Of a stretch of 64,000 nt of DNA, positions 7,889 to 63,775 are shown in pieces. A program made the translations under genes and the position numbers. Position 1 is the stretch's first letter. Each line of letters starts with the position of its first letter. Source of the DNA: a virus. The DNA lies in IMG/VR virus record IMGVR_UViG_3300029288_006769, positions 314,367 through 378,366 of that record. One strand, given 5' to 3'. The notes under the pieces are model-generated. The model was given only the letters and a program-made list of their open reading frames with translations, made no database searches and had not been told where the DNA came from.

Positions 7889-7962
7889 ATTAGCTCCTTA
7901 AATCTTTTTACATCATTTTCAAAATCAAAGTTGTCTGCATCTAAGACATAAACTTGCAGTGA

Positions 7963-8000
7963 ATAAAAACTATAGAAAACCATTTTTCTCTTGTTTTTAT
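7963..8000. promoter_or_regulatory. Back-to-back divergent pair of phage promoter motifs
   Basis: ataaaaactatagaa (minus copy, 7963-7977) and ttctcttgtttttat (plus copy, 7986-8000) between divergent genes. Confidence 0.6.
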
Positions 8001-8045
8001 ACGGTCAAACTTACTAGATTTCATCGACTAAAATTAGGAGTAAAA

Positions 8046-10304
8046 ATGGCTTATAAAGAACGAGCTTTAACTTCTGAATTAAAAAGTGATGTAAGTAGTT
8101 TAGCAAGTTACTTATTGAGTTCTGCCGATACCGTAAGAGTTACTTCAAATTTAACTGTTACAGAGAACTTAATAATACCTGCATCCTGTTCTTTTATGTT
8201 TTTTAATGGTGCAAAACTTGTACATAGTTCTTACACAATTACTTTTACCGGGTCCATTATAGGAGATCCAACATGGAAGATATTTGACGGTACTGGTACT
8301 GTCACCTTCAATGTTGGCTCTGTCCCTCATGTAAGACCGGAATGGTGGGGCGTAACACAAGGTGTTGATTGTACTGCGTCTGTTCAAAAAGCAATAGATT
8401 CTGTTTCAAGTGGTGGTATTGTTCTTTTATCAGCTGCTAGTTATGTAATTAATGGCCCTCTGACAAATAATACAGGTGCAATAATTCTAAATTATAGTTC
8501 AGTAAATCTTTTCAATCTTTTACCTGCAAGTTCATTTAGTAGAGAAATGCAATTTGGCGGCTCTTTTGTAGCGGGTACAGGTTCGTTCATAGAAAGTGCC
8601 TCTATTCCTCGATTATCAAATTTTACTTCTAATGGAGTACTTAAAACAACTGGCGCAAATGGAACTTTAACGGTAGATACAGTTGGAGTTTTTGGACCTA
8701 CTGGCATTCAAGGTGAAACAGGAATTCAGGGCATCCAGGGTGAAACAGGATTACCAGGCCTTGGTGGCACAGGTTTACAAGGTCCTCAAGGTGATACTGG
8801 AATTCAAGGAATACAGGGAGCCACAGGAATAGGAGCCGAAATATCTGGTCATAGTAGTTTAACTGATATGCCTGATTTAACAGGTGTTGTAGCTGATCAT
8901 GATACAAGACTTGTAACAAAAGTTCAAGACATAACTCCCACAGTGCCTGCACCTTTTGCAGGTATGCTATGGTATGACACTTTAGCAACAGGAAGTGAAC
9001 AAGGTTATACTGGGCCACAAGGTCTTACTGGAATTCAAGGTATCCAAGGTGAAACAGGGTTGCCAGGTATTGGTGGTACAGGTTTACAAGGTCCTCAAGG
9101 TGATACAGGTATTCAAGGCTTGCAAGGTGAAACTGGGCCTGCCGGTTTAGGAACAACAGGTATTCAAGGTGAAACTGGGCCTGCTGGTTTAGGAACAACG
9201 GGGATCCAAGGTGAAACTGGGCCTGCTGGTTTAGGAACAACGGGGATCCAAGGTGAAACTGGGCCTGCTGGTTTAGGAACAACAGGGATTCAAGGTGAAA
9301 CTGGATTACAAGGAAGCACGGGATTACAAGGTTTAGGTGAGACTGGATTACAAGGCATTCAAGGAAACACAGGAATACAAGGAAATACAGGTGCACAAGG
9401 TTTAGGTGAGACTGGGTTACAAGGTGTTCAAGGAAATACCGGCATTCAAGGAAACACAGGAATACAAGGAAACACAGGTTCACAAGGTTTGGGTGAAACA
9501 GGATTACAAGGCATTCAAGGTGAAACTGGAATACAAGGAAATACAGGTGCACAAGGTTTGGGTGAGACTGGATTACAAGGTGTTCAAGGAAATACCGGGA
9601 TACAAGGTGAAACTGGAATACAAGGAGACACAGGTTCACAAGGTCTAGGTGAGACTGGACTACAAGGTGTTCAAGGTGAGACTGGATTACAAGGAAATCA
9701 GGGCGAAACTGGAATTCAAGGCAATACTGGATTGCAGGGCGCGACTGGACTCCAGGGATTAATTGGAATTCAAGGTGATACAGGTCTTGGAATACAAGGT
9801 GAGACTGGTGCAGGAATTCAGGGTGAGACTGGCCTTCAAGGAATTCAAGGCGATACAGGCCTTGGAATTCAAGGTGATACTGGTGCAGGAATACAAGGTG
9901 AGACTGGGCTTCAAGGAATTCAAGGTGATACAGGTCTTGGAATACAAGGCACAACTGGTGCAGGGATTCAAGGTGAGACTGGGCTTCAAGGAATTCAAGG
10001 TGATACAGGCCTTGGAATTCAAGGTGATACTGGCGCAGGGATTCAAGGTGAAACTGGCCTTCAAGGAGCTCAAGGCGAGACTGGAATTCAAGGTGAAACA
10101 GGCTTAGGTCTTCAGGGTGAAACTGGCCTTCAAGGTTCTCAAGGTCAAACTGGGCCAGAAGGTGGACCTCAGGGAACTACAGGTCTACAGGGACCACAAG
10201 GATTAACAGGTATACAGGGTGCTGCTAACATTTTGTCTGGTACTGATGATCCACCTGATCCATCAGGATATCCTGATGATACTTTATATTTTCAATATGT
10301 TTAA
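8046..10304 (+). CDS. Collagen-like fibre protein 1
   Basis: AGGAG RBS before ATG 8046; tailspike-like N-terminus (VRPEWWG...DCTASVQKAID); long G-x-T-G-x-Q repeat; ends PDDTLYFQYV. Confidence 0.85.
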   Translation: MAYKERALTSELKSDVSSLASYLLSSADTVRVTSNLTVTENLIIPASCSFMFFNGAKLVHSSYTITFTGSIIGDPTWKIFDGTGTVTFNVGSVPHVRPEWWGVTQGVDCTASVQKAIDSVSSGGIVLLSAASYVINGPLTNNTGAIILNYSSVNLFNLLPASSFSREMQFGGSFVAGTGSFIESASIPRLSNFTSNGVLKTTGANGTLTVDTVGVFGPTGIQGETGIQGIQGETGLPGLGGTGLQGPQGDTGIQGIQGATGIGAEISGHSSLTDMPDLTGVVADHDTRLVTKVQDITPTVPAPFAGMLWYDTLATGSEQGYTGPQGLTGIQGIQGETGLPGIGGTGLQGPQGDTGIQGLQGETGPAGLGTTGIQGETGPAGLGTTGIQGETGPAGLGTTGIQGETGPAGLGTTGIQGETGLQGSTGLQGLGETGLQGIQGNTGIQGNTGAQGLGETGLQGVQGNTGIQGNTGIQGNTGSQGLGETGLQGIQGETGIQGNTGAQGLGETGLQGVQGNTGIQGETGIQGDTGSQGLGETGLQGVQGETGLQGNQGETGIQGNTGLQGATGLQGLIGIQGDTGLGIQGETGAGIQGETGLQGIQGDTGLGIQGDTGAGIQGETGLQGIQGDTGLGIQGTTGAGIQGETGLQGIQGDTGLGIQGDTGAGIQGETGLQGAQGETGIQGETGLGLQGETGLQGSQGQTGPEGGPQGTTGLQGPQGLTGIQGAANILSGTDDPPDPSGYPDDTLYFQYV
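9124..9303 (+). repeat. Near-exact 42-nt in-frame tandem repeat (x4)
   Basis: caaggtgaaactgggcctgctggtttaggaacaac... encoding QGETGPAGLGTTGI. Confidence 0.8.
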
Positions 10305-11591: not shown

Positions 11592-14243
11592 ATGCCACTT
11601 TTAAAAATTTTTGATGGTGCAGACTGGCAAATTGTTGGACGAGGCGTCCAAGGTGATACAGGTGCTCAAGGTTTGCAAGGTGCTACAGGTCTTCAAGGAA
11701 TTCAAGGGCAAACTGGTGTAAGAGGAGAAACTGGAGCACAAGGTAACACTGGCGTTACAGGAAGAACTGGACTTCGAGGCGCTACAGGCCCACAAGGTCA
11801 AGGTAATACAGGACTTCAAGGACAAACAGGAGTAAAAGGACAAACAGGAATACAGGGTCCAACAGGCCTTAAAGGTGCTACAGGCTCTCAAGGCGATACT
11901 GGCTATCAAGGCATACAGGGTGATACAGGAGTTGCTGGACCTCAAGGTGATACAGGAGTCCAAGGTGCAACTGGACCTTTAGGAGGGCCCCAGGGAGCTA
12001 CTGGCTTACAAGGCACTCAAGGTGATACTGGTTTAGAAGGAACTACTGGATTACAAGGTTTGCAAGGTGAAACTGGTTTTCAAGGCCAAACCGGTGCCCA
12101 AGGATTACAGGGAGAAACAGGATTACAGGGAGAAACTGGGTTACAGGGTACACAGGGATCAACTGGTTTCCAAGGCCAGACTGGTATAACAGGTGATCAG
12201 GGTCAAACTGGCGATCAAGGTGCTACTGGCCTTCAAGGCTCAACAGGTTTTCAAGGACTGACAGGCTCGCAAGGCAACACAGGAGCTCAAGGCTTTACGG
12301 GTTTGGGAGCACAAGGAGATACTGGATTACAAGGTCTTCAAGGCGAAACAGGAACTCAAGGCATTCAAGGCGACACTGGATTAAGTTTGCAAGGCGAAAC
12401 GGGTCTTCAAGGTATTCAAGGCGAGACTGGCCTGGAAGGTTCTCAAGGACAGACAGGTTTACAAGGACTTGGCGAAACAGGACTTCAAGGCGAAACAGGT
12501 TTAGAAGGTACTCAAGGTGTTACTGGATTACAAGGTATCCAAGGAAATACTGGATTACAAGGTATCCAAGGAAATACTGGATTACAAGGCGAAACTGGAT
12601 TAGGACTTCAAGGAGAGACAGGTTTACAGGGTGTTCAAGGTAACACTGGATCACAAGGTACTCAGGGTAATACTGGAGTTCAAGGTCTTGGTGAAACAGG
12701 TTTACAAGGTGAAACAGGAATACAAGGTAACCAGGGTAACACAGGAGCTCAAGGCCTTCAGGGAAACACTGGATTAAGTTTGCAAGGTGAAACAGGTCTT
12801 CAAGGTATCCAAGGCGAAACAGGCTCTCAAGGTATTCAAGGACAGACAGGTGTTCAAGGTGAAACTGGCTTACAAGGTACTCAAGGAAACACAGGCATAC
12901 AAGGAAGCCAGGGCGATACCGGTGTTCAAGGAACGCAAGGAAATACTGGATTGAATGGTGAAACAGGCCTTCCGGGTTCACAAGGTGAGACAGGATTAGA
13001 AGGCGTACAAGGTAATACAGGACCTCAGGGACTTGGCGAAACAGGTCTTCAAGGTATAACAGGCTTGCAGGGCTCTCAGGGCGATACAGGGTTGCAGGGC
13101 TCTCAGGGCGATACAGGGTTGCAGGGTCAAACTGGATCTCAAGGAATTCAGGGCAATACAGGATTACAGGGTGAGACAGGGTTACAAGGATCGCAGGGTG
13201 ATACAGGAGCCCAAGGTTTGGGTGAAACAGGTCTTCAGGGTTTCCAAGGACAAACAGGTATCCAAGGCGATACAGGAGCTCAAGGTTTACAAGGAGATAC
13301 TGGTCTACAAGGAAGTCAAGGCAATACTGGTATCCAAGGGTTACAAGGAAATACTGGTTTAAGTGGTGAAACAGGTCTTCAAGGTGCTCAAGGTGATACA
13401 GGAGCACAAGGAATTCAAGGTGATACAGGAGCACAAGGAATTCAAGGTCAAACAGGAGCACAAGGAATTCAAGGTCAAACAGGAGCACAAGGAATTCAAG
13501 GCAATACAGGATTGCAAGGGCAAACAGGTATTGATGGTATTCAAGGACAAACAGGACTTCAAGGTCTTGGCGAAACAGGTCTTCAGGGTCTACAGGGTAT
13601 CCAAGGCGATACAGGAGCTCAAGGATTACAAGGAATAACGGGCCTTCAAGGTCAGACTGGTTTGCAAAGTCCACAAGGTGATACAGGGTTACAAGGTCAT
13701 ACTGGTACTCAGGGGGTTCAAGGAAGTACAGGTCTTCAAGGTGCTCAAGGTGATACTGGCACACAAGGGATACAAGGTCAAACTGGGCCTCAAGGTTTAG
13801 GTGAAACAGGCCTACAAGGAATGACGGGTTTGCAGGGCTCTCAGGGCAACACTGGAGCACAAGGCATTCAAGGAAATACTGGATTACAGGGTACTACTGG
13901 TTTACAAGGTTCTCAAGGCGATACTGGTATTCAAGGAAATACAGGTGCTCAAGGGCTTGGTGAAACAGGATTACAAGGCGAAACCGGTTTGCAAGGTGAA
14001 ACAGGTCCTTCAGGTGGTCCTCAGGGAGCCACAGGTTTGCAAGGTGAAACTGGTGTTCAAGGTATTCAGGGAGTAACTGGCGTAGGTACTGGAGGTTCAG
14101 ATCCAACATTCAATTCTGTAACTATAACAGGTAATCTAAATGGTACTACAGGCATGGCTGCTCCAGTTTTATATGGTACTGGAAATCCACCATCTACTGC
14201 AGGTATCCCTTATGGAGCTATTTATTATCAATATGTGAACTAA
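11592..14243 (+). CDS. Collagen-like fibre protein 2
   Basis: GGAGG RBS; almost entirely GETGLQ-type triplets; ends GAIYYQYVN. Confidence 0.9.
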
Positions 14244-14263: not shown

Positions 14264-15499
14264 ATGTTTGGTAAAAGCGGGAATATAGCTTATAAGTCAG
14301 ATGGTAGTGTATGGTCTTGGGGTCAAAACAGTTGTGGCCAGTTGGGTGATAATGGTAGTGGTTATGTTAGGTCATCTCCTGTTCTGGTAGTGGGTGATCA
14401 TAAATTTTATTTGATAAGTGCTGGAAGAACTAATACTGTTTATCTTAAACAAGATGGCAGTGCTTGGTGCAATGGAATTGGAAATGGTATAGGAGATGAT
14501 ACAACTGATCAGAAAAATTCACCTGTAGCAGTTATAGGAAACCATTCCTTTGTAGATATTGACAGCGAATGGGGATTTTGTATGGCCCTCAAATCTAATG
14601 GCGAAGCTTGGGGTTGGGGATATAACATTAGAGGTAATTTAGGTAATAATTCTACCACACATACATCTTCTCCTGTACAAGTAGTAGGTAATCATTCTTT
14701 CATAAAAGTACAATGTGCGGGTGACAGTAATGCTAATGGTGAATCCGCAGGAGCATTGAAAGCAGATGGATCGTTATGGGGATGGGGAATGAATGCTTAT
14801 GGATCTTTAGGAAATGGAGACAGTAGTAATAAAAGCTCTCCAGTAGTGGTGGTAGGGAACCATTCTTTTATTGATTTTGCTATATCTCCTTGTTCCAGAT
14901 ATGGTTTGAAAGCTAATGGTGAAGTTTGGAGCTGGGGTGCTAATTATGCTGGTCAATTAGGAACAGGAAATACAACAAGTTATACATCTCCAGTATTGGT
15001 GATAGGAAATCATTCTTTTATAAAAATTGCATTGTCGCTTTATTCTAATAGGTCTGATTCAGTCGGATGTGCTGGATTGAAAAGTGATGGTACAGTTTGG
15101 ACATGGGGAAATTGGTGGACAATGGGTAATAATTCTATCACAGCTACATCTTCTCCTGTTTCTATAGTTGGAGATCACTCTTTTGTAGATATCACTGGAG
15201 GAGCAGAAACCGGGTTTTTCTCAGGGTTAAAATCAAATGGAGAGATATGGTCTTGGGGTGTCAATTCATATGGACAACTAGGTGATCTTAGTTTAACAAA
15301 TAGAAGTTCACCAGTGCTATTAGCAGGTAATCACTCTTTTATTTCTTTGCACACAGGTATGAACATGAATTTAGATGTGTCGGGTTCTTGGAAGAGAAAC
15401 CCTATTATACATGTGAACGTCGAAGGAACTTGGAAAAGAATAATAAGACAGAAAATGAATATAAACGGTACTTGGACATCACCTATACATCCAGATTAA
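14264..15499 (+). CDS. RCC1-repeat beta-propeller protein 2
   Basis: Seven RCC1 repeats; tail VNVEGTWKR...INGTW. Confidence 0.9.
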   Translation: MFGKSGNIAYKSDGSVWSWGQNSCGQLGDNGSGYVRSSPVLVVGDHKFYLISAGRTNTVYLKQDGSAWCNGIGNGIGDDTTDQKNSPVAVIGNHSFVDIDSEWGFCMALKSNGEAWGWGYNIRGNLGNNSTTHTSSPVQVVGNHSFIKVQCAGDSNANGESAGALKADGSLWGWGMNAYGSLGNGDSSNKSSPVVVVGNHSFIDFAISPCSRYGLKANGEVWSWGANYAGQLGTGNTTSYTSPVLVIGNHSFIKIALSLYSNRSDSVGCAGLKSDGTVWTWGNWWTMGNNSITATSSPVSIVGDHSFVDITGGAETGFFSGLKSNGEIWSWGVNSYGQLGDLSLTNRSSPVLLAGNHSFISLHTGMNMNLDVSGSWKRNPIIHVNVEGTWKRIIRQKMNINGTWTSPIHPD

Positions 15500-15568
15500 T
15501 TATATACTTGCATTTAAAACTTTTTTAACTTGTAGCAAATTAAAATTATAAAATTCGCTTTAGGAGCT

Positions 15569-15736
15569 ATGAAATTTATGTCTTTGCCTATAAGAGACAC
15601 ACCTATTTTGGCAGGAGAAGATGCAAGAAAATTTATCAAAAACATGCAGAATCCAAAACCGGTTCCTCGTAAAGAATATGAGCGAGCAAAAAAGATTTAT
15701 GAAGAATTGAAAGCAAAAGGAAAACTAGATATTTAG
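15569..15736 (+). CDS. Small protein, possibly antitoxin-like (55 aa)
   Basis: Hand-translated MKFMSLPIRDTPILAGEDARKFIKNMQNPK...; AGGAG RBS. Confidence 0.5.
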   Translation: MKFMSLPIRDTPILAGEDARKFIKNMQNPKPVPRKEYERAKKIYEELKAKGKLDI

Positions 15737-15745
15737 GAGAATTAG

Positions 15746-17293
15746 ATGCAGTCTTTAAGTCTTGCTATAATAATGAAAGACGTAGAAAAAACTTTACAAA
15801 AATGCTTAGATTCTGCTGCTCCTGTTGTTGATGAAATTATAGTAGTAGATACTGGTTCCACAGATAGATCAAAAGAAATTGCATTACAATATACTTCTAA
15901 AGTTTATGATTTCCCCTGGATAGATGACTTTTCTGCTGCTCGAAATTTTTCTTTTGATTTATGCACAAAAGAGTATATATTTTGGATTGATGCTGATGAT
16001 GAAATTCTTAAAAAAGATCAAGAGAAAATAAAAAATCTTGATTTATCTGACAAAGAAATAGTGTTATGTCAGTATCAATATTCTCATGATCAGTTTGGTG
16101 TTCCCGAATGCACTCTTGAGCGAGAAAGAATTATTAAACGTTCTCTTGGGCTTAAATGGGAAAAACCCATTCATGAATATTTGCCCATTTCTGGAAAAAA
16201 AATTTCTAGACAAGATATTGAAATACATCATTGGAAACAACATGGTACATCAGAAAGAAATTTGAAGATATTAGAAAGAATTATTCAAAAAGATCCTGAT
16301 TCTAGAAATTTCTATTATCTCGGAAAAGAATATGCCGATTTTGGAAGATTTGAAGAAGCTATTGAAACTCTTGAAAAATTTGTTACTATGAAAGGCTGGT
16401 GGGAAGACGTATTCTGTGCTCATGATACTATTGCTAAATGTTATCTTGTTCTTAAAAATGAAAAAAAGTTTTTTGAGAATATTTTTCGTTCAATAGAGAT
16501 AGAGCCCAGAAGAGCTGAACCATACTTTGAACTTGGTGATTATTACTTCTCAAAAAACGATTGGGGAAAAGCTGCTCATTATTTTGATATTTGCCTGAAT
16601 GTAAAAAGACCCAAAGAATTAATGTCAACATATTATCCTCAAAATTATACATGGCGACCAGCACTCATGGCAACACAAGCTTATAATAATTTAGGTGCTG
16701 TGCAGACAGCTTTTGAACGTAGTAAATTGTTTTTAAAATACAGGCCAAATGACCAATTAGCTATAAACAATTACAATTGCCTGTTGAATAGTTCTTTACG
16801 TTTTGTCAAGAAAGATGGACAAAGCAAGAAGCTTAATCTAGGTTGTGGAAATAAAAGAATTGAAGGTTATATAAATGTTGATATAGTCAAGATACCCGAA
16901 GTTGATGAAGTTTTTAATTTCTATGAAATACCTTATCAAGATAATACGATTTCAACTATTTCAAGCGAACATGCATTAGAGCATGTATCAGCTGACAAAG
17001 CAAAACAAGCTATAAAAGAATGGTTTAGAGTTCTTGAGCCTGGTGGTAAATTAGAGCTCTATATTCCCGATCTTGAGTTATGTGCTAAGGGTTATGTAGA
17101 AGGCGACAATAGTCGTACTATTAATGGGTTTAAAGAAAAAAATTGGTATAAAATGACTTTGTATGGCGCACAAAGACCCGAGAATGGAAGTGATGCTGAA
17201 CATCAATTTCATTTAAATGGTTTTTCAAAAGATGAAATCAAAGAATTACTTGAAGAAGCAGGGTTCATAATAACTCATCTAAGGAATTACTGA
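15746..17293 (+). CDS. GT2 + TPR + class I SAM methyltransferase (piece 1 of split glycosyltransferase)
   Basis: VDTGSTD, DFSAARNFS, WIDADD, IHE; TPRs; LNLGCG...HALEH...RVLEPGG. Confidence 0.85.
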   Translation: MQSLSLAIIMKDVEKTLQKCLDSAAPVVDEIIVVDTGSTDRSKEIALQYTSKVYDFPWIDDFSAARNFSFDLCTKEYIFWIDADDEILKKDQEKIKNLDLSDKEIVLCQYQYSHDQFGVPECTLERERIIKRSLGLKWEKPIHEYLPISGKKISRQDIEIHHWKQHGTSERNLKILERIIQKDPDSRNFYYLGKEYADFGRFEEAIETLEKFVTMKGWWEDVFCAHDTIAKCYLVLKNEKKFFENIFRSIEIEPRRAEPYFELGDYYFSKNDWGKAAHYFDICLNVKRPKELMSTYYPQNYTWRPALMATQAYNNLGAVQTAFERSKLFLKYRPNDQLAINNYNCLLNSSLRFVKKDGQSKKLNLGCGNKRIEGYINVDIVKIPEVDEVFNFYEIPYQDNTISTISSEHALEHVSADKAKQAIKEWFRVLEPGGKLELYIPDLELCAKGYVEGDNSRTINGFKEKNWYKMTLYGAQRPENGSDAEHQFHLNGFSKDEIKELLEEAGFIITHLRNY

Positions 17294-17499
17294 TGTCAGA
17301 CAGAACAACATGTTTAACCGTCGTCCTTGACAATGATTTTCGTATTGATGACATAGACAGCATTCTAAATGCAATTAGAATGATTAAAGGTGTTGCAGAA
17401 GTTAAAGCAAATGTTTCTAACCCTGAAGAATTTACTGCTTATATAAGAGCAAAAATGAGTCTTGAGAAAAAATTATGGGAAGCATTGAAAGATGAATAG
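17293..17499 (+). CDS. Small phage protein inserted in glycosyltransferase locus
   Basis: TGATG overlap at start; stop overlaps next ATG. Confidence 0.7.
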   Translation: MSDRTTCLTVVLDNDFRIDDIDSILNAIRMIKGVAEVKANVSNPEEFTAYIRAKMSLEKKLWEALKDE

Positions 17500-17929
17500 T
17501 TATGGTACTCCTTCAATTGAAATTAGAGCAATAAAACCAGTTTGTCCTTTGAGGATAGGCTGGATTATGACCGAGTATAACGAGACAGCTGCCCAAACAC
17601 GTATAAGAGTAATTAATGTTTGCATAGCATTAAAAGTAATGGGATATATGTCAAATTTTGCGACATATCAAAATATTCTTGACAAAAAATATGATATCGC
17701 AATAGTTGGAAAAGCTTTTAGTGAAAATGATTATAATAGCATCAAGTTATTAAAGCAACATGGAAAAACTGTTTACTGTGATTTATGTGAAGATATAATT
17801 GGATGGCCTTGGGTAAATGAAATCTTAAGTTTGTGTGACAAAGTCATTTGTTGTTCATATATGTTGCAAGAAAAAGTTAAACCAGTCAACCCGAACACAT
17901 TTGTTATAGAAGATGCTTTTGAAGTTTAA
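17492..17929 (+). CDS. Last MTase strand + GT-B N-terminal half (piece 2)
   Basis: NSYGTPSIEIRAIKP, then RIGWI...AQTRIRV...DLCED...DKVICCS..LQE...VIEDA. Confidence 0.65.
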   Translation: MNSYGTPSIEIRAIKPVCPLRIGWIMTEYNETAAQTRIRVINVCIALKVMGYMSNFATYQNILDKKYDIAIVGKAFSENDYNSIKLLKQHGKTVYCDLCEDIIGWPWVNEILSLCDKVICCSYMLQEKVKPVNPNTFVIEDAFEV

Positions 17930-18222
17930 TGTCTATACGTACGCAATTAATTGAAGGATTTTCTCAGATTGAAAAATATAATCAGCAAGTTGTTTCTGTT
18001 TTCATAAGCTCAGCTACATTTGAAGCAATAAAGAAAGAGAATATAAACGAATTTTTATTCAATAAAGAAGGATCAAAATCTCTTGGAACTATTTATGGAG
18101 CAAAAGTTTATTTGAATGAAACTGATAATATTGAATTTAGATCAAGTACAAGAATCATTCTAATCCCATCAGAAGTAAAACTTGAGCGTAATAAAAAATT
18201 CAAATTTATAATGGAGGCATAA
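17929..18222 (+). CDS. Stand-alone major capsid A-domain-like protein
   Basis: LIEGFSQIEKYNQQVVSVFIS...GTIYGAKV aligns with MCP LADAFAEVEKHDLRVARLFMN...AQIWGADI. Confidence 0.55.
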   Translation: MSIRTQLIEGFSQIEKYNQQVVSVFISSATFEAIKKENINEFLFNKEGSKSLGTIYGAKVYLNETDNIEFRSSTRIILIPSEVKLERNKKFKFIMEA

Positions 18223-18914
18223 TGAATAATAAAGAAGTATTTGTAGAAAAGCTGAATGAATGTGGTGAAGTCAAGTACGAAATGACAGAAATTCATAGCA
18301 GAATTTTGAGCAAACTAAAAACTGTATATCAACTTGTTTTTCAACGCGAGAAAAAAGATTTTCTTTCACTCAAGAATATGCAATATTTCAAACAGGGTAT
18401 TGCTTCTCCTGATGCTCGACCGAGATTACATGAAGTTCTTGATGTTTTTGTAAACCTTGCAAATCATTATAATTTCCTTGGTGATGACGAACTCAAAGAA
18501 TATCTTGATTCTAGAGGCATCACATTTACTATTACAAGACCAATGCTTGAAGATGGAGCTGTTTCTGTTTCGAAAGAAGAAACAAAAGAATTTGAAAGAT
18601 CTTGGAAATTTGCAATGGCAAATGAAGCTATTCCTGGGACAAAAAAAGAGATTCTCAATGCTATTCTAGATAAAGCGATCAGTGTACAAAAAGCGATCGA
18701 AAACAAAAAAGAAGAAATAGACAAAAAAGCTCAAGATGTTGATCTTGAATGCCAGGTCAAAAAACCTTTCTTTTTTAAAGCCCTTACTATCAAAATTGCT
18801 GAAATGAAAAAACGCTCAGTAGATAATCAAATCAAAAAAGTAGAAGATGATATTGAAGCATCAAAAGACATAATTTCGATTTTTGATAAAGCTGAAGAAA
18901 AAACTGAAGAATGA
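18222..18914 (+). CDS. Helical/coiled-coil hypothetical protein
   Basis: GGAGG RBS, TAATG coupling. Confidence 0.6.
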   Translation: MNNKEVFVEKLNECGEVKYEMTEIHSRILSKLKTVYQLVFQREKKDFLSLKNMQYFKQGIASPDARPRLHEVLDVFVNLANHYNFLGDDELKEYLDSRGITFTITRPMLEDGAVSVSKEETKEFERSWKFAMANEAIPGTKKEILNAILDKAISVQKAIENKKEEIDKKAQDVDLECQVKKPFFFKALTIKIAEMKKRSVDNQIKKVEDDIEASKDIISIFDKAEEKTEE

Positions 18915-18955
18915 GCAAATCTGTTTAAATGTCATAACATAGGCAAAGTAAGATT

Positions 18956-19561
18956 ATGAAACAAAAACATATTGTAATCAATAAAGAGGGACCAAAAATA
19001 TTACCAGATTCTATACAAGCGAAAATTCACCCAGAGATTTCAAATACGAATTGTTGGATATTGTCAAATAGTACAAGAAAACATCCGGGACATTATGCTG
19101 TAAAACAATGGGTTTTATGTTATGGTCAAATGCCTAAAAATTTAAATGTTTTACATAAATGCGATAATGTCAACGGGCCTTGTGTTAATCCAGAACACTT
19201 ATTTTTAGGAACGCCTTCTGAGAACTTAAAAGATTGTATAATAAAAAATAGATTTAGAAACGGGTGTACAAGTAGTACCGCTAAGAAAGCTTGGTTAACA
19301 AGATTAAAAAATGGGAATATAGATAATTTCATAAGTTCGTCAGAAAAAGCAAAAAAAGCAGTAGAAACAAAAAAGAAAAACGGAATAAAACTTGGTTTAA
19401 CTTCTGAACAAGCAAAGAAAAGTTGGGACACAAAAAGGAAAAAAGGCGAAGGTAATGGCGAAAAATTTGTTAGTGCTGCTAAAAAAGGATGGTTAACTAG
19501 AAGAAAAAATGGCAATGGTCATAAATTTGGAAATCAACACACAAAGGCAAATAAATGTTAA
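18956..19561 (+). CDS. HNH homing endonuclease with basic C-terminal repeats
   Basis: VLHKCDN...CVNPEHLFLGT..EN..D; repeated AKKxWxTRxK. Confidence 0.85.
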   Translation: MKQKHIVINKEGPKILPDSIQAKIHPEISNTNCWILSNSTRKHPGHYAVKQWVLCYGQMPKNLNVLHKCDNVNGPCVNPEHLFLGTPSENLKDCIIKNRFRNGCTSSTAKKAWLTRLKNGNIDNFISSSEKAKKAVETKKKNGIKLGLTSEQAKKSWDTKRKKGEGNGEKFVSAAKKGWLTRRKNGNGHKFGNQHTKANKC

Positions 19562-20763
19562 TCTATTGGGAAGGATATGGGGGAACAAAATATTTAGCTG
19601 AAAATTTGCGGCCTTTAATTGAACAATTAAATTGCAAACTTATAACAATGAGTGAATGGGAAGATTCAGATATTATTTGGGATTTATCGACATGGTTGCA
19701 AGAATTAAAAAAAGCAGATGTCGTAATTATTCCTTGCAACTACTTGGTTCAAAATGCTAAATCAAATAATAGACTTACGCAAATGATGAGTTTAGGAAAA
19801 CCCTGCATTGTTAATCCTTTACCTGCATATCTTAAAATAATCGAAGAAAATCCAGGTTGTGCTCTAATTGCTACAACAGAAGAAGATTGGAAAAAACATA
19901 TTGAATATTTAAAAGATAGCGAACATAGAAATCAATTATCACAAAAAGCTTTAATAGCAGCTCAAAAATACTCAATCAAGAATATAGCTCAAAAATGGAT
20001 TGACATATTTGAAAATAAAAAAGAAGACATTAAAAATGATGTAATAATCCCTACATATAATAATGTCGAATATTTGAGATTATGTCTAGATTCTCTTAAA
20101 AGAAATTCTGCTTTTAAAAACAGGATAATCATTTCAGATGCTGGTAGCAATGCAACGACCTGGGAATATTATAAGACTATTAATAATGTCGAGATTCTTG
20201 GTACCCAAGACGTACGACTAAATTTTTCACAGGCTTGTAATGCTGGGATACAAAATTCTTCATCTGATTATTTTGTACTCCTAAATTCTGACACTATAGT
20301 TTCTAAAAATTGGGATGTGAATCTTGTAAGTAAATTACAAGCAGATCCTCAATTAGCCATGTGCGGTGTTCTATCTAATTGTGATCGTTTTTGGTTGCAT
20401 GGTGTACCTGGCAAGCCAGTGTATCCAATGAGTATACCTGGTTTAGAACTTGTCCCTGGAATGAAAGCGAGTCAGTTAGAGGGCAAACTAGACAGCCTAT
20501 ATAGTTTTATGGACAATTCAAATAAATCACACCAAGGGACTCTCGTTGAACAAGAATGGGTAGCGTTTTATTGTACTATGTTTAATAGAAAAAAATTTAA
20601 TGAAATTGGTCTTTTGGATATTACTTTCAACAATGGATGCGAAGATTTAGATTTTTGTATTAGAACAAAAAAAATGAATTATAAAATAGCTCAAGCTATA
20701 GATTGTTTTGTTTTTCACTTTGGGGGCATTTCACGGGGGAGTTACGAAAAAGAGTTTTTATGA
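19555..20763 (+). CDS. GT-B C-terminal half + GT2 domain (piece 3)
   Basis: YWEGYGG...KSNNRL..MSLGKP; VIIPTYN, LLNSD, GCEDLDFC, FVFHFGG. Confidence 0.8.
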   Translation: MLIYWEGYGGTKYLAENLRPLIEQLNCKLITMSEWEDSDIIWDLSTWLQELKKADVVIIPCNYLVQNAKSNNRLTQMMSLGKPCIVNPLPAYLKIIEENPGCALIATTEEDWKKHIEYLKDSEHRNQLSQKALIAAQKYSIKNIAQKWIDIFENKKEDIKNDVIIPTYNNVEYLRLCLDSLKRNSAFKNRIIISDAGSNATTWEYYKTINNVEILGTQDVRLNFSQACNAGIQNSSSDYFVLLNSDTIVSKNWDVNLVSKLQADPQLAMCGVLSNCDRFWLHGVPGKPVYPMSIPGLELVPGMKASQLEGKLDSLYSFMDNSNKSHQGTLVEQEWVAFYCTMFNRKKFNEIGLLDITFNNGCEDLDFCIRTKKMNYKIAQAIDCFVFHFGGISRGSYEKEFL

Positions 20764-21341
20764 AACAAATCCAACTCTACTTATCCTTAAAAAAGCCATT
20801 GTTATCTGATAAATTCACAATCATAGATGATGATATTTATGAATTGTTTAAAAACACAAAATTAAAACTTAGTTCACTTGCTGATAATAGAAAGTTCTAT
20901 GTAGAAACACCTAATAAAAACTTCAAAGTATTCCATAGAGAAATATTAAATGCAAAAAAGAATGAAGTTGTTGATCATATTAATGGATTAACATTGGATA
21001 ATAGAAGAGAAAATTTAAGAATTTGCAATATACAACAAAATTCATGGAATAGAGGTATTGATATAGATAACAAATTAGGTTATAAAGGAGTTACTGCTGT
21101 AAAAAACAAATTTTATGCAAGAATAGGAAAAGGAGTTTTTTACAATCTTGGAACTTTCAAAACTGCAGAAGAAGCTGCTCGAGCCTATGATATTGCAGCC
21201 TTACGTCTATTTGGACAATATGCATTTACTAATTTTCCTAAAGAAGATTATTCAAATCTAAAAAAATTTGAGGCTATAATAAATGTAAAAAGAAGATTTG
21301 TTTGTAAAAACCAGTTGCCAAAGACACAATATGTCCAATAG
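20760..21341 (+). CDS. HNH-AP2 homing endonuclease
   Basis: HREIL...VVDHINGLTLDNRRENLR...N; AP2 YKGV...LGTFKTAEEAARAYD. Confidence 0.9.
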   Translation: MKQIQLYLSLKKPLLSDKFTIIDDDIYELFKNTKLKLSSLADNRKFYVETPNKNFKVFHREILNAKKNEVVDHINGLTLDNRRENLRICNIQQNSWNRGIDIDNKLGYKGVTAVKNKFYARIGKGVFYNLGTFKTAEEAARAYDIAALRLFGQYAFTNFPKEDYSNLKKFEAIINVKRRFVCKNQLPKTQYVQ

Positions 21342-22464
21342 ATATAAAGAAGAAGACACATCAAATCATAAATATTTAGAAGAAAAATGGAGTAAAAAAA
21401 CCATAGTATTTTTTTCTGGACCTAGTTGGGAAAAATGGGATCATAGAAATGTTGATCAAAATGGGATAGGAGGAAGTGAAACTTGGCAAGTAATGATTTC
21501 TAGAGAACTATCAAAACTTGGTTATAGAGTTATAAATTTTAATGATTGTCAGGAAGAAATAGATGATGGGCTCGTAAAATATTTCCCATATTCCCGATTA
21601 CATAATTTCATTGAATACAATTATGTTGATTATTTTATTAGTTCAAGAACGACAGAGCCTTTTAGACTTAAAATACGTTCAAATAAAAAAATTGTTATTT
21701 GCCACGACATCTGGTTATCAAGTCAAAATCAAGTTGCTTACCAAGAAAAAGTCGATAAATTCTTAGTTTTGTCTGAATGGCATAAAAATTTTGTGCATCA
21801 ACATCATGGTATATCTTTAGACAAATTAATCATGACTTCTAATGGTGTCGACTTGAAAAGATTTGAAAAACAGATTGAGCGTCATCCTTATAGACTTATG
21901 TATTCTTCTTCATTAGATAGAGGGCTTGATGTACTTCTCTATCTTTTTGATTTTATCAAGGTTAATGTGCCAGAACTTGAACTTCATATTTTTTATGGGT
22001 TAGATAATTGGATAAAAAGTGCTCAGCATCGCCCAGGTGAAAAAGAAAAAATTGAAGCTATACAAAAAGCAATGAATAAACCTGACGTATTTTATCATGG
22101 ACGCGTAGGACAAGATCAATTAGCTGAAGAGTGGTTAAAGTCTTCTTTATGGGCGTACCCAACTGATTTTGAGGAGACGAACTGCATCACTGCTATAGAA
22201 GCTCAAGCTGCTGGTCTACCTGTGCTCGCTACTAATTATGCTGGACTCAGAACTACAGTTGGAAATTCTGGTATTTTATTGGGTAATGGGAATAAAGGTG
22301 AAGCTAATACAAGAGAATTTAGAATTGAATTTGCTTCAAAATGTATTAGTCTTTTGAAAGATAGAGCGCTTTGGAAGGAATGGTCAGAAAAAAGTTTAGA
22401 AAATGCAAAAAAATATTCATGGGCCAATATAGCAAAACAATGGGTTGAGCAAATCTTATGTTGA
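21331..22464 (+). CDS. GT2 terminal helix + GT4-family glycosyltransferase (piece 4)
   Basis: GIGGSE, YSSSLDRGL, YPTDFEETNCITAIEAQAAG. Confidence 0.85.
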   Translation: MSNRYKEEDTSNHKYLEEKWSKKTIVFFSGPSWEKWDHRNVDQNGIGGSETWQVMISRELSKLGYRVINFNDCQEEIDDGLVKYFPYSRLHNFIEYNYVDYFISSRTTEPFRLKIRSNKKIVICHDIWLSSQNQVAYQEKVDKFLVLSEWHKNFVHQHHGISLDKLIMTSNGVDLKRFEKQIERHPYRLMYSSSLDRGLDVLLYLFDFIKVNVPELELHIFYGLDNWIKSAQHRPGEKEKIEAIQKAMNKPDVFYHGRVGQDQLAEEWLKSSLWAYPTDFEETNCITAIEAQAAGLPVLATNYAGLRTTVGNSGILLGNGNKGEANTREFRIEFASKCISLLKDRALWKEWSEKSLENAKKYSWANIAKQWVEQILC

Positions 22465-23042
22465 CAAGAAAAGACATTCCTGAATTTCTAAACCAAAAAG
22501 AACTTATAGGTTATGGTGCCGAAATTGGTGTCTTGCGTGGTGAATTTTCAAAACACATATTAGAAAAATGGAAGGGTAAAAAGCTTTATTTAATTGATTC
22601 TTGGCGATATTCAAAAGACATTGTTGATTTGAACAATTTTGAATTTAAAGAACAACTCGAAAATTATTCGAAAACTTTTTCTAATATTTATAGTTTTGGT
22701 GATAGAGCAACAATCATAAGAGAGTTCTCAAGAGAAGCCTCAAGATTGTTTCCTGATAATTATTTTGATTTTGTGTTTTTAGATGCAAGACATGATTTTG
22801 AGAATGTAACAATAGATTTAGAATCATGGTATCCTAAAGTGAAACCTGATGGTTATTTGATGGGCCATGATTATTTAGATAATATAACAAAGGTTGGTGG
22901 TGATATAGTTTTTAGTACAAAATTTGAAGTTAAATCCGCTGTAGATATTTTTGCTTTTGTAAGGAATTTAGAAGTTTATGTAATCGAAGACAAAAGCGAT
23001 CCGTTTTATCCATCTTGGTATATCAAGAAACTTACTGCTTGA
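22458..23042 (+). CDS. Class I SAM methyltransferase (Methyltransf_24-like)
   Basis: GAEIGV..GEFS, DFVFLDARH, KVKPDGYLMGHDY. Confidence 0.85.
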   Translation: MLTRKDIPEFLNQKELIGYGAEIGVLRGEFSKHILEKWKGKKLYLIDSWRYSKDIVDLNNFEFKEQLENYSKTFSNIYSFGDRATIIREFSREASRLFPDNYFDFVFLDARHDFENVTIDLESWYPKVKPDGYLMGHDYLDNITKVGGDIVFSTKFEVKSAVDIFAFVRNLEVYVIEDKSDPFYPSWYIKKLTA

Positions 23043-24666
23043 ATCTTTCAAGAACTTTTTCAATTACTTCTTCTTCTGTCGGTAAATAAAAATCCCAATT
23101 TTGTTTTATAAGTTCTGCTGTCGCTCCACCTTCAATCCATGTTGTAGGTCTTTGATCGCAATCATCAAGTGTAAGTTTCTTATATAGAGCATCAGCTTTA
23201 TGATAAGGCGTAATATAACCTTCGGATGTTTTTCTAAAAGGTAATACATGATCTGGATGTTTGCATGTTGGCATTATTATGATCCAATTGTCGAATGCCC
23301 CAGCTAAATGTATTGGAACAGAATCATTAGATAATAAAACAGGTGCTCTTGAGATAGCTGAAATTAGAACACCAACAGATGTTCTGTCTATGAGACTGAT
23401 AGAATTAGAAGGAAGTTCAAGTTGATATGCGCCTCGATTTTCATGATCATCTGTTCCAATTAAACATACAGGAATTTCTTTAGAGATACCATCTACAACT
23501 TTTTGCCACCATTCGATAGGAAATGTTTTGCTTTCCCAATGTCTTCCTGGATGAACAATTACAGCTTTTCTAAGATCAAAACCTTTAAGTATTTCATCTA
23601 ATTCATCATCATCTTCTTTTGTTGTTTGTATTTTGATAATTTTTTCTTGTAGGGGTAATACTCTTTGTAGAGAAGCAATAGAACAATAATCTACTGTATG
23701 ACAGAGTAAATTCGAAATAATAGAATAAACTACTGTTTTTGGATCTGGGAAAGTTTTTATTTGAAAAAAGGGTTGAAAAATCGAAGGGTTGAAATCATCA
23801 TGATGTATTATTTTATATTTCAAATGCTTGAAAAGCCTTGGCCAATGTGTTGTAATAATTATTTCTGTTGTATTATCTTTGTAGACTTTTTCAAGAAATC
23901 TTAATGTCGGTTCAGCATCTACTTGATCGCCCATTCCCCCAGAAACCACAATAACTATATTTCGTTTATAATTATATTCGGGTTTGTCGTTTTCCCATTT
24001 TTCAAGATCTCCCTTAATTATTGATAAAATCTCATTATTTACTGTAAAATAATGATAACCAGCATAATGTATAATAAATGAACTATGTCTTGTTTCTCCA
24101 CAAAAATCCAGACATGTCATTCGGTTAAGTTTGTATGGTAAATCATACATGAGTGAATTTTCTTCTTTTCTTTTACCTTCTTCAATTGCGAATTTTAAAT
24201 TGAGATACCCTTGTTCATAAAAGTTTGAAATTTCTTTTTCAGGTTTTTTAAAAAAGAATTTATGACACTTTGAAATAACTAAAACACCAGTATTATAATA
24301 TTTTCCATTCCAGTTTATTTTCTCAGGGTTAATATCATAACTCTTGCAAGCTTCAATTAATGAGTACTCTCTTGGTACAAATTTAGCTTCGTTGAAAGCA
24401 CCTATTTTGTTATAAGGCACTATATCAAAAAGATCAGGACAATCATCTCTTACGATTAAATCCGTATCAAGATAAATTATTCTATCATAAGAATTCAAAA
24501 GATCGAATATTTGGAATTTTTCCCAATGTGGAGTCGTTTTGCATGAATCAATAACTATAAAATCAGCATTGATTTTTTTCGCGTATGATTGTAGAGTTGG
24601 ATGCGTAAGTTTTGAGATATTTTTAATCTCATCCCCGATAGAAATAGCAATAAGAGCTTTTTTCAT
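23032..24666 (-). CDS. GT8-like + GT9-like fused glycosyltransferase
   Basis: YLDTD, YNTGV, EQGYLN, IIHYAG; GGMGD, VHPG..W.SK, SNDSVPIHLAGA. Confidence 0.8.
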   Translation of the reverse strand: MKKALIAISIGDEIKNISKLTHPTLQSYAKKINADFIVIDSCKTTPHWEKFQIFDLLNSYDRIIYLDTDLIVRDDCPDLFDIVPYNKIGAFNEAKFVPREYSLIEACKSYDINPEKINWNGKYYNTGVLVISKCHKFFFKKPEKEISNFYEQGYLNLKFAIEEGKRKEENSLMYDLPYKLNRMTCLDFCGETRHSSFIIHYAGYHYFTVNNEILSIIKGDLEKWENDKPEYNYKRNIVIVVSGGMGDQVDAEPTLRFLEKVYKDNTTEIIITTHWPRLFKHLKYKIIHHDDFNPSIFQPFFQIKTFPDPKTVVYSIISNLLCHTVDYCSIASLQRVLPLQEKIIKIQTTKEDDDELDEILKGFDLRKAVIVHPGRHWESKTFPIEWWQKVVDGISKEIPVCLIGTDDHENRGAYQLELPSNSISLIDRTSVGVLISAISRAPVLLSNDSVPIHLAGAFDNWIIIMPTCKHPDHVLPFRKTSEGYITPYHKADALYKKLTLDDCDQRPTTWIEGGATAELIKQNWDFYLPTEEEVIEKVLERFKQ

Positions 24667-26833: not shown

Positions 26834-29800
26834 TTATATGTATTGAATATAAATAGCATTATCTGGATAACCTGCCGGACTAGGAGGTGCACTTGTACCT
26901 GACGTAACATTGAGCCCTAAAATTCCAGTTACGCCTTGGATACCAGTTTGACCTTGTATCCCTTGTAATCCAGTGACTCCTTGCGCCCCTGCTATTCCAG
27001 TTTGTCCTTGTAGACCTGTCTGACCCTGAATACCTTGTACACCAGTAGCACCTTGATTACCTTGAAGACCTGTTTCGCCTTGTAATCCAGTTTCACCTTG
27101 CAGACCTTCTAACCCTGTCTCACCCTGCAACCCAGTGTCACCTTCGATACCTTCTAGACCAGTTTCGCCCTGAATTCCTTGTAATCCTGTAGTTCCTTGA
27201 GAACCAGTTTCACCCTCTAACCCTGTCGTACCTTGGACACCTGTCTCACCTTGAGACCCTTGTAACCCAGTTTCTCCTTGAACTCCAGTATTTCCTTGCA
27301 AACCTTGAAGACCAGTTTCGCCTTGAGCACCTTGCAATCCTGTAGTACCCTGAGTTCCAGTTTCCCCTTGAATTCCTTGCAACCCTGTCTCACCTTGCAA
27401 ACCAGTTTCGCCCTGAACACCTTCTAAACCTGTAGTTCCTTGAAATCCAGTTTCACCTTGAATCCCAGTTTCACCTTGTGCACCTTGTAACCCTGTTGTT
27501 CCTTGAAGACCTGTAACTCCCTGAAGTCCAGTAGAACCTTGCTGTCCATTTATACCAGTTTCGCCTTGTAAGCCCGTATTACCCTGAATACCAGCAAGAC
27601 CTGTTGTACCTTGTAGTCCGGTGTCACCTTGAACACCTGTTTGACCTTGTAATCCTGTATTACCTTGAACACCTTGTAACCCTGTAGCTCCAATTAAACC
27701 AGTGAGACCTTGCACACCAGTCAGACCTTGAACGCCTGTAACACCTTGAAGTCCTGTTTCACCTTGTGCTCCTACAGCTCCTGCTGAAGCGGGTGATGTT
27801 CTAGAACCAAAAATAGATTTTACGTTTTTTATTACAAAACTACCAGTTAAAGCACCAGTTCTTTGTAATGATATTTGAGCAATTATTACATATTCAGGGC
27901 TTGAAAAAGTACCAAAACTCAAATTTCTCGGGTCTTCTGTAAGACAAGAAGATGATGCACTATTTGTATAAGTTTGTTGACCTTGTACCCATAAAAATCT
28001 ATAACTCTGAGAACCAGAGTCCGCTGTAACTGGTACAGCAACTAACCAAACATTCATCCAATTATTAGAAGGTAATACAGTTTGTTGCCAAGTTCCACCC
28101 GTAAATTGATTATACGCTATTGTACCCCCTACTAAAGGTACTATGTTAGGATCAGTAAGCGTGAATACTGCTGTAGCGCCAGAACCTGAAAGATAAAAAA
28201 GAGTATAAGGCCCATTATCAGCAAGCGAATTCAAAGTTGTAAGAAGATCTTCATCTTCAATATAAGTTGCACCTACAGCTGGTCTGTTATCTGCATCAGT
28301 TGCACCGTCAATAACATAACCACTAATATCACCACCACTTCTACGATATGTGCCTATTGTATTATGAAATGTTCGATGAGATTCCCAAGGCATTAATCCA
28401 TGAACTTCTCTAAGACCAAATTTGACAGCTGTATAATAATTAACAAAAGCTATTTGCGCCATATCATAAGACCAGATAGAGCTAGACCAAATAAAACTTG
28501 AACCATTATAATACAAGAACCATGTGTTATCACTATCTGTATGTGAGTCTGAAGTCCATGTTGTTATGCCATCCCAAACTTTAGTACCTCTCCAATACAA
28601 TGTAATAGAACTACCAGTAAGCGTAATTGTTCTTGCTGTAGAATCATAAGTTACAGTTATATTTTCTGGACTTAGAAATCCAGTGGGTTCTTTAGTGTCA
28701 TTTAAAATAGTACTGTCAAAAACTCCAGTTTCACCTTGAATTCCAGTATTTCCTTGGACACCTGTTTCGCCTTGTAGACCATTAACACCAGTTTGTCCTT
28801 GTAATCCAGTATTTCCTTGACTCCCTTGTAACCCTGTATTGCCCTGTAATCCTGTTTCTCCTTGAGCGCCATTAGAGCCTGATAATCCAGTTGTACCTTG
28901 AAGACCAGTACTACCCTGTATACCTTGTGAACCCGTTTGCCCTTGTAAGCCAGTTGCGCCCTGAACACCTTGCAGTCCGGTTGCTCCTTGTATACCAGTC
29001 TGTCCCTGTAAACCTGTAGTACCCTCTAAACCAGTAACACCTTGCTGTCCCTCAAGTCCTGTATTTCCTTGATTGCCTTGAAGCCCCGTATCACCCTGCA
29101 AACCAGTCTCACCTTGTACCCCTTGAGGTCCTTCAAGACCATCTTCACCCTGCAAACCAGTAACACCCTGAAGTCCATTCAACCCTGTATTACCTTGTGC
29201 TCCTGTAAGCCCTGTGTTTCCTTGACTTCCAGTCAAACCTGTCTCGCCTTGGTTGCCATTGACACCTGCTAAACCAGTTTGACCCTGAAGACCTGTTTCG
29301 CCCTGTATACCATTAACACCAGTTTGTCCTTGAGCGCCTTGAAGTCCTGTATTGCCTTGAATACCAGTGCCACCCTGGTTGCCCTGTAAGCCAGTAATTC
29401 CTTGAAGTCCTGTGTCGCCCTGAAGACCTTGCAACCCAGTATTGCCCTGATCACCTTTTATACCTGTATCACCTTGTAGTCCTGTTTGACCTTGATAACC
29501 AGAAAGTCCAGTTGCGCCCTGAACTCCTGTATTTCCTTGAATTCCTGAAAGACCCGTCTGTCCTTCTAAACCCGTTGACCCTTGTAATCCAGTATGTCCT
29601 TGTAAACCTGTAGCACCCTCTAAACCAGTAATGCCTTGCTGCCCTTCAAGTCCTGTATTACCTTGTATACCAGTTTGACCTTGAACACCTTGTACTCCAG
29701 TATTTCCTTGATTGCCTTGAAGTCCCGTATTACCCTGTAAACCAGTCTCGCCTTGTGAACCTTGCAACCCTGTTTCGCCTTGTAATCCCTGAGTACCAGT

Positions 29801-63242: not shown

Positions 63243-63775
63243 TCAGTCTACTTCAATATCCTGATCAACTAATTTTTTAACTTCTGCAAATTCATGTTGA
63301 TCAAACCCTTTAAGCCTTGCAGTCCAATTAGGATTGTCGGGGAGACAATCCATAACATGTGCTACAGTTTCAAAACTTACTGGAGTAAAATTGTTACTGT
63401 CAACACCTACATCAAAAGATTTTCCAAAGGGCTCGAGCATACCGTGCGAGTGTCCGTATAAATGCCAAACACGCATTGCAAAATGAGATAGAACAATAGT
63501 TTTCTTTTCAATTTTAATTATATGTAAGTCATAAACTTTATCAAAAACACTACAATCATATCTATAATCATGATTCCCTACAATCAGCTCGATCCGGCCC
63601 TTCAATCTCTTTCTATAATGATAAGGGTTCTTAAAGGAGAAATCCCCAAGATGATAGACTGTGTCGCGCTCACCAACTACATTGTTCCAATTATTTATTA
63701 TTGTTTCAAAGGACGATCGCAATAATGTATAATTTTTGAATGACCAAGATGCGTGTCGGAAGTAAAGAAAATCAT
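63243..63775 (-). pseudogene. Calcineurin-like metallophosphoesterase, frameshifted
   Basis: MIFFTSDTHLGH..YCDRP in one frame; ETIINNWN..HLGDF, GNHD, GHSH in another. Confidence 0.75.

Follow-up and report, generated by a model that had tools for sequence, protein, structure and literature searches.

In Aeromonas phage Aeh1 the nrdA gene is split by the free-standing gene mobE, an arrangement described as 'genes-in-pieces' (Crona et al. 2010, PMC3045599). Fragmentation of phage genes by small indels that make a stop codon and a new start is routine in phage pangenomes and constitutes class 1 in Rephine.r (PMC8351571), and in the 'fractured genes' split inteins are reported to flank a homing endonuclease gene (Dassa et al. 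2009, PMC2677866). The locus analysed in this work lies in a stretch of 64,000 nucleotides (nt), hereafter the window, which corresponds to bases 314367-378366 of a 424,144-bp IMG/VR virus record with a G+C content of about 32%. Four open reading frames (ORFs) of the window, designated A, B, C and D, carry domains of glycosyltransferase (GT) and methyltransferase families and are separated by other genes at three junctions, J1 (A-B), J2 (B-C) and J3 (C-D). We consider it probable that they represent one glycosylation module encoded in four separately translated ORFs, that the breaks differ in age and that the chains would reassemble.

Ten ORFs, all on the plus strand, were found between positions 15746 and 23042. 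The four fragments are as follows.

A: 15746-17293, plus strand, 515 amino acids (aa); GT2, TPR and a class I S-adenosylmethionine methyltransferase without its last beta strand (Pfam)
B: 17492-17929, plus strand, 145 aa; the last methyltransferase strand (about residues 5-16) followed by the predicted N-terminal Rossmann half of a GT-B fold (no Pfam assignment)
C: 19555-20763, plus strand, 402 aa; the predicted C-terminal Rossmann half of the GT-B (about residues 1-155) and a second GT2 (Pfam, weak for the GT-B half)
D: 21331-22464, plus strand, 377 aa, with 21331 as the true ATG; a linker helix of about 20 aa and then a complete GT4, itself of GT-B fold (Pfam PF00534)

A search for longer proteins with B returned 44 matches, about 40 of which were fused A+B proteins of about 660 aa. 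Residues 1-515 of A and 2-145 of B map end-to-end onto these single proteins; A aligns to their residues 1 to about 520, and in P0001 the A part ends at residue 521 and the B part starts at 522. An exhaustive HMMER search with C yielded many C+D fusions of about 780 aa and two B+C+D fusions, P0043 and P0080 (915-916 aa). At least six proteins hold A, B, C and D in the order of the window (P0077, P0079, P0085, P0088, P0089 and P0103; 1407-1485 aa; HMMER), and P0077 comes from a phage-like contig of 152 kb. When viral contigs were scanned directly with fragment C, no match was obtained. Contiguity across each junction is far beyond chance. An earlier note on this DNA had proposed that the four ORFs read on from each other as an enzyme of roughly 1440 aa; single-chain homologues do span all three junctions, and a counterpart of that size and domain order exists in relatives.

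The alignments located the junctions to the residue. At J1 the multiple alignment places ...LRNY / M-NSYGTPSIEIRAIKP opposite ...NYDG-WDTPSVAVRALKP of the fused forms. At J2 the fragments read ...VIEDAFEV / MLIYWEGYGG, and the fused forms add a linker of about 20 aa at this point. At J3, ...RGSYEKEFL / MSNRYKEEDTSNHKYLEEKW stands opposite ...RKISENE-NHSKHHEEDQFSSKYLNEKY. Fragment ends coincide exactly with the continuing residue of the homologue, the extra residues amounting to at most one Met or a 2-aa tail. The architectures found in the family were A+B, C+D, B-C-D, A-B-C-D and C-D-A, plus forms without the methyltransferase. Among single cases, P0048 has the order C-D-A, P0049 carries a methyltransferase segment within C, and P0104 (284 aa) is permuted, a C-type half preceding a B-type half.

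The stop/start overlaps listed in the earlier note (TGATG, ATGAATAG, TAATG, ATGTTAA, ATGA and ATGTCCAATAG) were all found in the sequence, and the start of the gene that follows D overlaps the D stop codon in the same manner (ATGTTGA). By crude ORF calls, 8 of 9 adjacent pairs overlap in the locus, compared with 21 of 61 for same-strand neighbours in the rest of the window. No terminator-like site was seen in 15300-23300. The ORFs would thus probably share one transcript, with translation coupled through the overlapping stop and start codons and the chains made in roughly equal amounts.

That a single chain is restored after all, by an intron, an intein or split intein, stop-codon reassignment, frameshifting or ribosome bypass, appears extremely unlikely. 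Such a scheme would agree with the coordinates, by which A and B share one reading frame and C and D likewise, with the Tyr codon that precedes the J1 stop in all split relatives, and with the true inteins that occur at other sites in relatives of the gene family. Group I and group II introns were rejected: a permissive Rfam scan of 15000-23500 at E values up to 10 gave no match, the inserts are wholly coding, filled with ORFs from end to end that have their own overlapping starts and stops, and the 7-17-nt seams found at J1 in two split relatives, L011 and L003, leave no room for a ribozyme. These two seams carry a Shine-Dalgarno-like GGAG, which fits re-initiation. An intein was rejected on the immediate in-frame stops, the lack of a Hint or intein domain in Pfam and the lack of extra residues at the fragment ends; stop-codon reassignment, because the genes use all three stop codons and their frames are closed again after just a few codons. 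Ribosome bypass from the Tyr-stop to a downstream Tyr is unlikely as well, both Tyr residues, that at J1 included, being conserved in the family and Shine-Dalgarno-like sequences being present at the L003 and L013 seams. With the fractured genes the locus shares a two-piece gene with a free-standing endonuclease gene between the pieces; unlike them, it has no intein halves or Hint domain by Pfam, and the fragment ends match residues of the host protein.

Insertions of about 390 aa were observed in relatives at two fixed sites, in A near residue 80 (P0027, P0037 and P0054) and in D at residue 285/286 (P0055, P0059, P0067 and P0099). Those of P0027 and P0037 match intein and LAGLIDADG families of Pfam. 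The ~390-aa insertions indicate that this enzyme family has been struck by inteins as well as by free-standing endonucleases.

Analysis of the domains showed that both A and C belong to GT2, with matches to PF00535 (A, 1.3e-18 and 68 bits; C, 8.4e-19 and 68.5 bits) above the cut-off of 23.3. The methyltransferase of A was recognized by PF08241 (33.1 bits, cut-off 21.2) and also by PF13489, and TPR families were matched in A. D belongs to GT4 (PF00534, 4e-13, 49.7 bits, cut-off 26.4). B plus the first 155 residues of C gave only sub-threshold matches in Pfam, among them weak GT1-family matches at C residues 50-150; a profile of the fused B-C region matches the C-terminal half of GT4 structures (BshA, 2.6e-9).

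In class I methyltransferases strand 7 of the sheet lies between strands 5 and 6. The AlphaFold2 (AF2) model of the fused A+B protein P0013 (mean predicted local distance difference test score, pLDDT, 90.6) has the seven-stranded sheet of this class, and J1 corresponds in it to a loop at 521-532 (pLDDT about 70) between strand 6 (513-520) and strand 7 (533-539), the next Rossmann domain beginning at 546. Given the position of strand 7 and this model, fragment A would lack one inner strand of its methyltransferase, and the strand is encoded on B in the window. In the AF2 model of the fused B-C-D protein P0043 (mean pLDDT 91.1) the orphan strand at the N-terminus (residues 1-20) is disordered, with pLDDT of 41-63. 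J2 corresponds here to an unstructured linker, 139-159, between two alternating beta/alpha domains, and J3 to a helix-helix kink between helices 524-532 and 534-551. The D-equivalent of P0043 (553-911) superimposes on PimA, MshA and BshA at Z scores of 29-31 with a root-mean-square deviation of about 3 A over about 320 aligned residues; since its GT4 fold begins only at 553-555, the helix of about 20 aa that opens D in the window is taken as a linker. In Foldseek and VIA-align searches with the B-C-D model (916 aa) the GT4 domain outweighed the rest, and the results were uninformative for the half-folds in B and C. The break positions agree with those of the earlier note: J1 precedes the final strand of the methyltransferase, J2 separates the Rossmann halves and J3 precedes the helix that comes after the second GT2.

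Judged from profiles and models, B and the first ~155 residues of C are the two Rossmann halves of a predicted GT-B. In the eukaryotic Alg13/Alg14 system the Rossmann halves of a GT-B likewise lie on separate chains, which must pair. The likeness concerns the layout only, an N-terminal half on B and a C-terminal half on C. Unlike Alg13/Alg14, the matches at this locus go to GT4-type families and structures (PF00534, PF13524; BshA, MshA, PimA) and each half is fused to other catalytic domains; neither B nor C had a Pfam match to an Alg13/Alg14 or MurG-like family.

The pieces could also be independent enzymes of a glycosylation operon, the long relatives being secondary fusions and reassembly being unneeded except perhaps between A and B. 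This we judge unlikely. The architectures of the family are indeed very fluid, fused and unfused forms are mixed on the C+D tree, and the root of the tree is undefined, so that fusion and fission at J2 are indistinguishable; furthermore D alone is a complete GT4 fold, and the linker helix belongs to C in L006 and L013 but to D in the window. Against it, J1 cuts inside the methyltransferase fold, as expected from the place of strand 7 and from the hairpin of the AF2 model, A alone is no complete domain, J2 separates the halves of one predicted GT-B fold, and J1 is marked as a derived fission by the A+B tree, where fused forms surround the split clade.

The dN/dS ratios were estimated by the Nei and Gojobori method (NG86) in two pairwise comparisons, with L006 (about 68% amino-acid identity, same four-piece layout) and with L011. 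The values vs L006 were 0.11 for A, 0.12 for B, 0.26 for C and 0.15 for D, and those vs L011 were 0.09, 0.07, 0.18 and 0.17, respectively. All four fragments are under purifying selection. Decay of the fragments, which the earlier note would have recognized by a dN/dS near 1, was not seen (0.07-0.26). The fragments are thus very unlikely to be pseudogenes that are being lost after hits by mobile elements, even though several mobile insertions occur at one locus and C is frameshifted close to its start in L012, where the gene caller gave just a 234-aa GT2 for it. ORFs of 515, 145, 402 and 377 codons have stayed open despite the low G+C content, the ratios are low in two independent comparisons, this split persists in a clade whose dS exceeds 1, and residues that hardly vary in the family, among them the TPS...K of the orphan strand, have been preserved. 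L012 corresponds to NCBI GCA_043956535.1, which is labelled Candidatus Nanoarchaeia; it appears to be a phage contig that ended up in the bin of an archaeal metagenome-assembled genome.

The window belongs to a well supported clade of five members, (L013,(L012,(window, L006, L011))). The four-piece layout is common to L006/L007, L012 and L013. In L011 the end of A is split from B and C+D are fused, only the last 63 codons of A being present on the contig. The trees place this clade within fused forms. In the one built from A+B, the split members (window, L006, L012 and L013) group together (Shimodaira-Hasegawa-like approximate likelihood ratio test, SH-aLRT, 99) inside a set of fused A+B proteins, and for this reason J1 is read as a derived fission. 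L003 was split separately; J1 therefore needs two state changes on the A+B tree, one of which serves the whole window clade. The genes and relics that separate the fragments in the window are as follows.

i1: 17293-17499, plus strand, 68 aa; fills the A-B seam (no Pfam or PHROG match)
i2a: 17929-18222, plus strand, 97 aa; resident of the B-C gap (no Pfam assignment)
i2b: 18222-18914, plus strand, 230 aa; conserved gene of the B-C gap (without a match in Pfam, PHROG or PDB)
Relic of the original start of C: 18911-18928, plus strand, ATG AGC AAA TCT GTT TAA (DNA alignment to the C start of L011)
i2c: 18956-19561, plus strand, 201 aa; free-standing HNH_3 endonuclease (Pfam, PHROG)
i3: 20760-21341, plus strand, 193 aa; free-standing HNH-AP2 homing endonuclease in the C-D linker (Pfam HNH_3 and AP2, PHROG)

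Comparison of J1 among the split forms revealed the following states.

Window: i1, a 204-nt insert flanked by GATG, which overlaps the A stop (TGATG) and the B start (ATGAATAG)
L006: an unrelated ORF of 102 aa
L013: an unrelated ORF of 117 aa
L011: TGA-T-ATG, a seam of 7 nt, one base over an in-frame NY-D-M-NSYGTPS reading
L012: overlapping frames, B starting with GTG
L003: an 11-nt spacer with GGAG

The seams without insert in L011, L012 and L003 and the unrelated fillers of the other relatives indicate that the J1 break is older than its present filling. The proposal of the earlier note that gene insertions had interrupted the enzyme at all three places consequently finds no support at J1, which exists in those three relatives with no insert in it. 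Homologues of i1 (P0196-P0198, 57-65% identity) occur in unrelated contexts of other phage contigs, and i1 itself shows no nuclease signature in Pfam or PHROG. In L009 (3-188) and L010 (2-556) the i1 homologue adjoins a homologue of the window ORF 63243-63722. The neighbourhood of the latter ORF may be the usual place of i1 and the source of the copy in the A-B seam.

At J2 about 40 A+B proteins stop exactly at the end of B and many C+D proteins begin exactly at the start of C, and i2b is present between B and C throughout the window clade, usually after i2a (18222-18914 in the window, 6248-6964 in L006, 934-1653 in L011, 5780-6469 in L012 and 8001-8705 in L013). With both protein types ending or starting there and i2b always in the gap, J2 is best read as an old and widespread gene boundary with resident genes, not as a recent interruption; the boundary already exists in these proteins, and an origin of it by insertion is not supported. 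The i2b family comprises 25 clusters with 52-83% identity and omega (dN/dS) of 0.08-0.15. Profile searches of i2b against Pfam, PHROG and PDB found no match, and the ESM Atlas gave no usable one. It is the best-conserved gene of the locus and a possible partner of the split enzyme. Counterparts of i2a were found in L011 (49% identity) and L006 (31%), none was called in L012, and i2a is a resident of the gap in most clade members. The earlier note had called i2a capsid-like; a similarity to the 292-aa capsid-like ORF 35941-36819 does exist, as a weak match of 27% over 33 aa with a pairwise E value of 6e-5, and it is on this match that the label rests.

At J3 an HNH-AP2 gene, i3 (HNH_3 1.8e-6 and AP2 1.6e-4 in Pfam; PHROG 99, 7e-34), separates C from D. 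In L011, the nearest relative, C+D are fused (775 aa), and they are fused in the outgroups. The cut lies before the linker helix in the window; L012 has its cut there too, but with a 12-nt spacer in place of an endonuclease gene, and L006 and L013 are cut about 20 codons further on and carry HNH_3 genes related to i2c. Mobile endonuclease genes give rise to just this kind of patchiness among close relatives, here the contigs compared, and of the three junctions J3 alone supports the insertion put forward in the earlier note: the HNH-AP2 split appears recent relative to the fused C+D of L011. A search of the window against GenBank phages by blastn had as its sole match a 93-nt HNH stretch, which i3 shares with an HNH homing endonuclease gene of Bacillus phage Stahl. 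The second endonuclease gene, i2c (PF13392, 9.8e-6; matches to endonuclease and HNH families in PHROG), was inserted five codons inside C, at a site that is empty in L006, L011, L012 and L013, and thereby severed the start of C that survives as the relic at 18911-18928. Two of the three HNH_3 matches of the genome fall in the locus.

The history of the locus may then be proposed as follows. The module would have the domain order GT2-TPR-methyltransferase, GT-B, GT2 and GT4, and its counterpart in some distantly related large phages is one chain of 1407-1485 aa. J2 would be old, its gap holding i2a and i2b. J1 would have arisen once, in the ancestor of the window clade, as a minimal stop-start seam in the hairpin between strands beta6 and beta7 of the methyltransferase, and would later have been filled, lineage by lineage, with unrelated small ORFs. 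A recent insertion of the HNH-AP2 gene into the linker before D would have made J3, and the second HNH gene would have gone in five codons into C. We infer that B supplies the strand missing from the methyltransferase sheet of A (beta-strand complementation) and that B and C come together like the halves of a GT-B fold; for C and D a loose association, or none, may suffice. The module would probably synthesize a glycan and methylate it, and the collagen-like fibre proteins of the neighbouring genes may be the substrate. Since genes with collagen repeats and a GT8/GT9 gene flank the locus, glycosylation of fibre proteins is a reasonable guess.

Several points weigh against this proposal. The transcription, translation, association and activity of the fragments are all deduced from sequence and models, and the half-fold call for B and C is based on a sequence profile together with the arrangement of secondary structure in the model of a homologue. 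The first GT-B, that of B and C, is without the usual EX7E motif and may be non-catalytic. dS is saturated (1-2.4) and the omega values are rough, though all far below 1. In L012 C is frameshifted after about 15 codons (L012 6490-6545), and some clade members may be losing parts. At J1 and J3 the data agree with either order of break and insert.

With respect to that order, a more specific version is offered tentatively, as a possibility that we rate below even chances: the breaks, as minimal stop-start seams in tolerant loops or linkers, came first and the inserts after, each seam serving as a protected landing pad from which cargo is expressed by translational coupling without harm to the host gene, and the clade keeps a natural split methyltransferase that folds when one chain supplies the strand missing from the other. 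Cargo does vary by lineage: J1 holds ORFs of 68, 102 or 117 aa, and J3 holds one of three kinds of HNH gene or lacks one. A landing pad would explain why different lineages load the same seams with different cargo.

The reading of one module in four chains can be set against the described systems. As in nrdA/mobE of Aeh1, J3 is a place where a phage enzyme gene is cut by a free-standing homing endonuclease gene, with no RNA or protein splicing and with halves that are predicted to be translated separately; the cut adds a 2-aa tail (FL) to C and a Met to D. Uninterrupted homologues are known at all three junctions, and each fragment has its own stop and start with no intron or intein, as in genes-in-pieces; a free-standing endonuclease insert is present for J3 and i2c and not for J1. 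Unlike in Aeh1, there are four pieces instead of two, two of the three seams predate their present inserts and are free of endonuclease in relatives, the activity of a reassembled split form is a prediction, for which the omega values (0.07-0.26) and the position of the breaks in loops and linkers speak indirectly, and the long insertion-derived tails that are essential in NrdA-a/b are missing. J1 is similar to class 1 of Rephine.r in that L011 has one extra base (TGA-T-ATG) and L012 overlapping frames; it differs in lying inside the methyltransferase fold, in being kept by a clade under purifying selection and in serving as a slot for unrelated ORFs. J3 is thus a further case of the Aeh1 nrdA/mobE type, J1 resembles indel-type fragmentation and J2 is an ordinary domain fission. 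Less ordinary are the number of seams in one enzyme, the clade-kept seam inside the methyltransferase fold and the reuse of seams by unrelated cargo.

The locus offers a dated series of gene fissions in one enzyme, comprising an old split at a domain boundary, a clade-old cut in the methyltransferase fold and fresh, recurrent endonuclease cuts in a linker, each step being visible in related phages, and with it a natural test case for fragment complementation in a methyltransferase without an inner strand and a GT-B in halves. It is also relevant to the question of how selfish genes come to insert at harmless sites in the genomes of large phages. Annotators would do well to regard A, B, C and D as a single functional unit, and i2b is noteworthy as a possible partner of the module.

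The record was read as a putative tailed jumbo phage. It contains a weak Gp23-like match; a search of the record for the capsid of nucleocytoplasmic large DNA viruses (NCLDV) gave no match, and the controls of the same search gave none either, so that absence is not shown. The genes around the locus include the following.

Collagen-repeat ORFs, three, long, flanking the locus: 7959-10304 (781 aa), 11592-14243 (883 aa) and 26834-30397 (1187 aa)
ORF flanking the glycosyltransferase island: 14264-15499, with an RCC1-like counterpart in L011
E: 22458-23042, plus strand, 194 aa; Methyltransf_24 (Pfam), a downstream neighbour shared with L011
GT8/GT9 gene beside the locus: 23032-24666

L011 repeats this set of neighbours (collagen, RCC1-like, GT8/GT9 and Methyltransf_24). 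In L012 and L013 a second GT2 gene lies directly upstream of A. Outside the window, the 127-nt stretch G000:C1:302401-302527 has 76% identity to nt 86-212 of fragment A and is probably part of a paralogous GT2 gene. A large-subunit ribonucleotide reductase ORF of 848 aa was found in the window at 60205-62754 on the minus strand; its Pfam barrel domain was matched in two stretches, and the ORF might hold an insertion.

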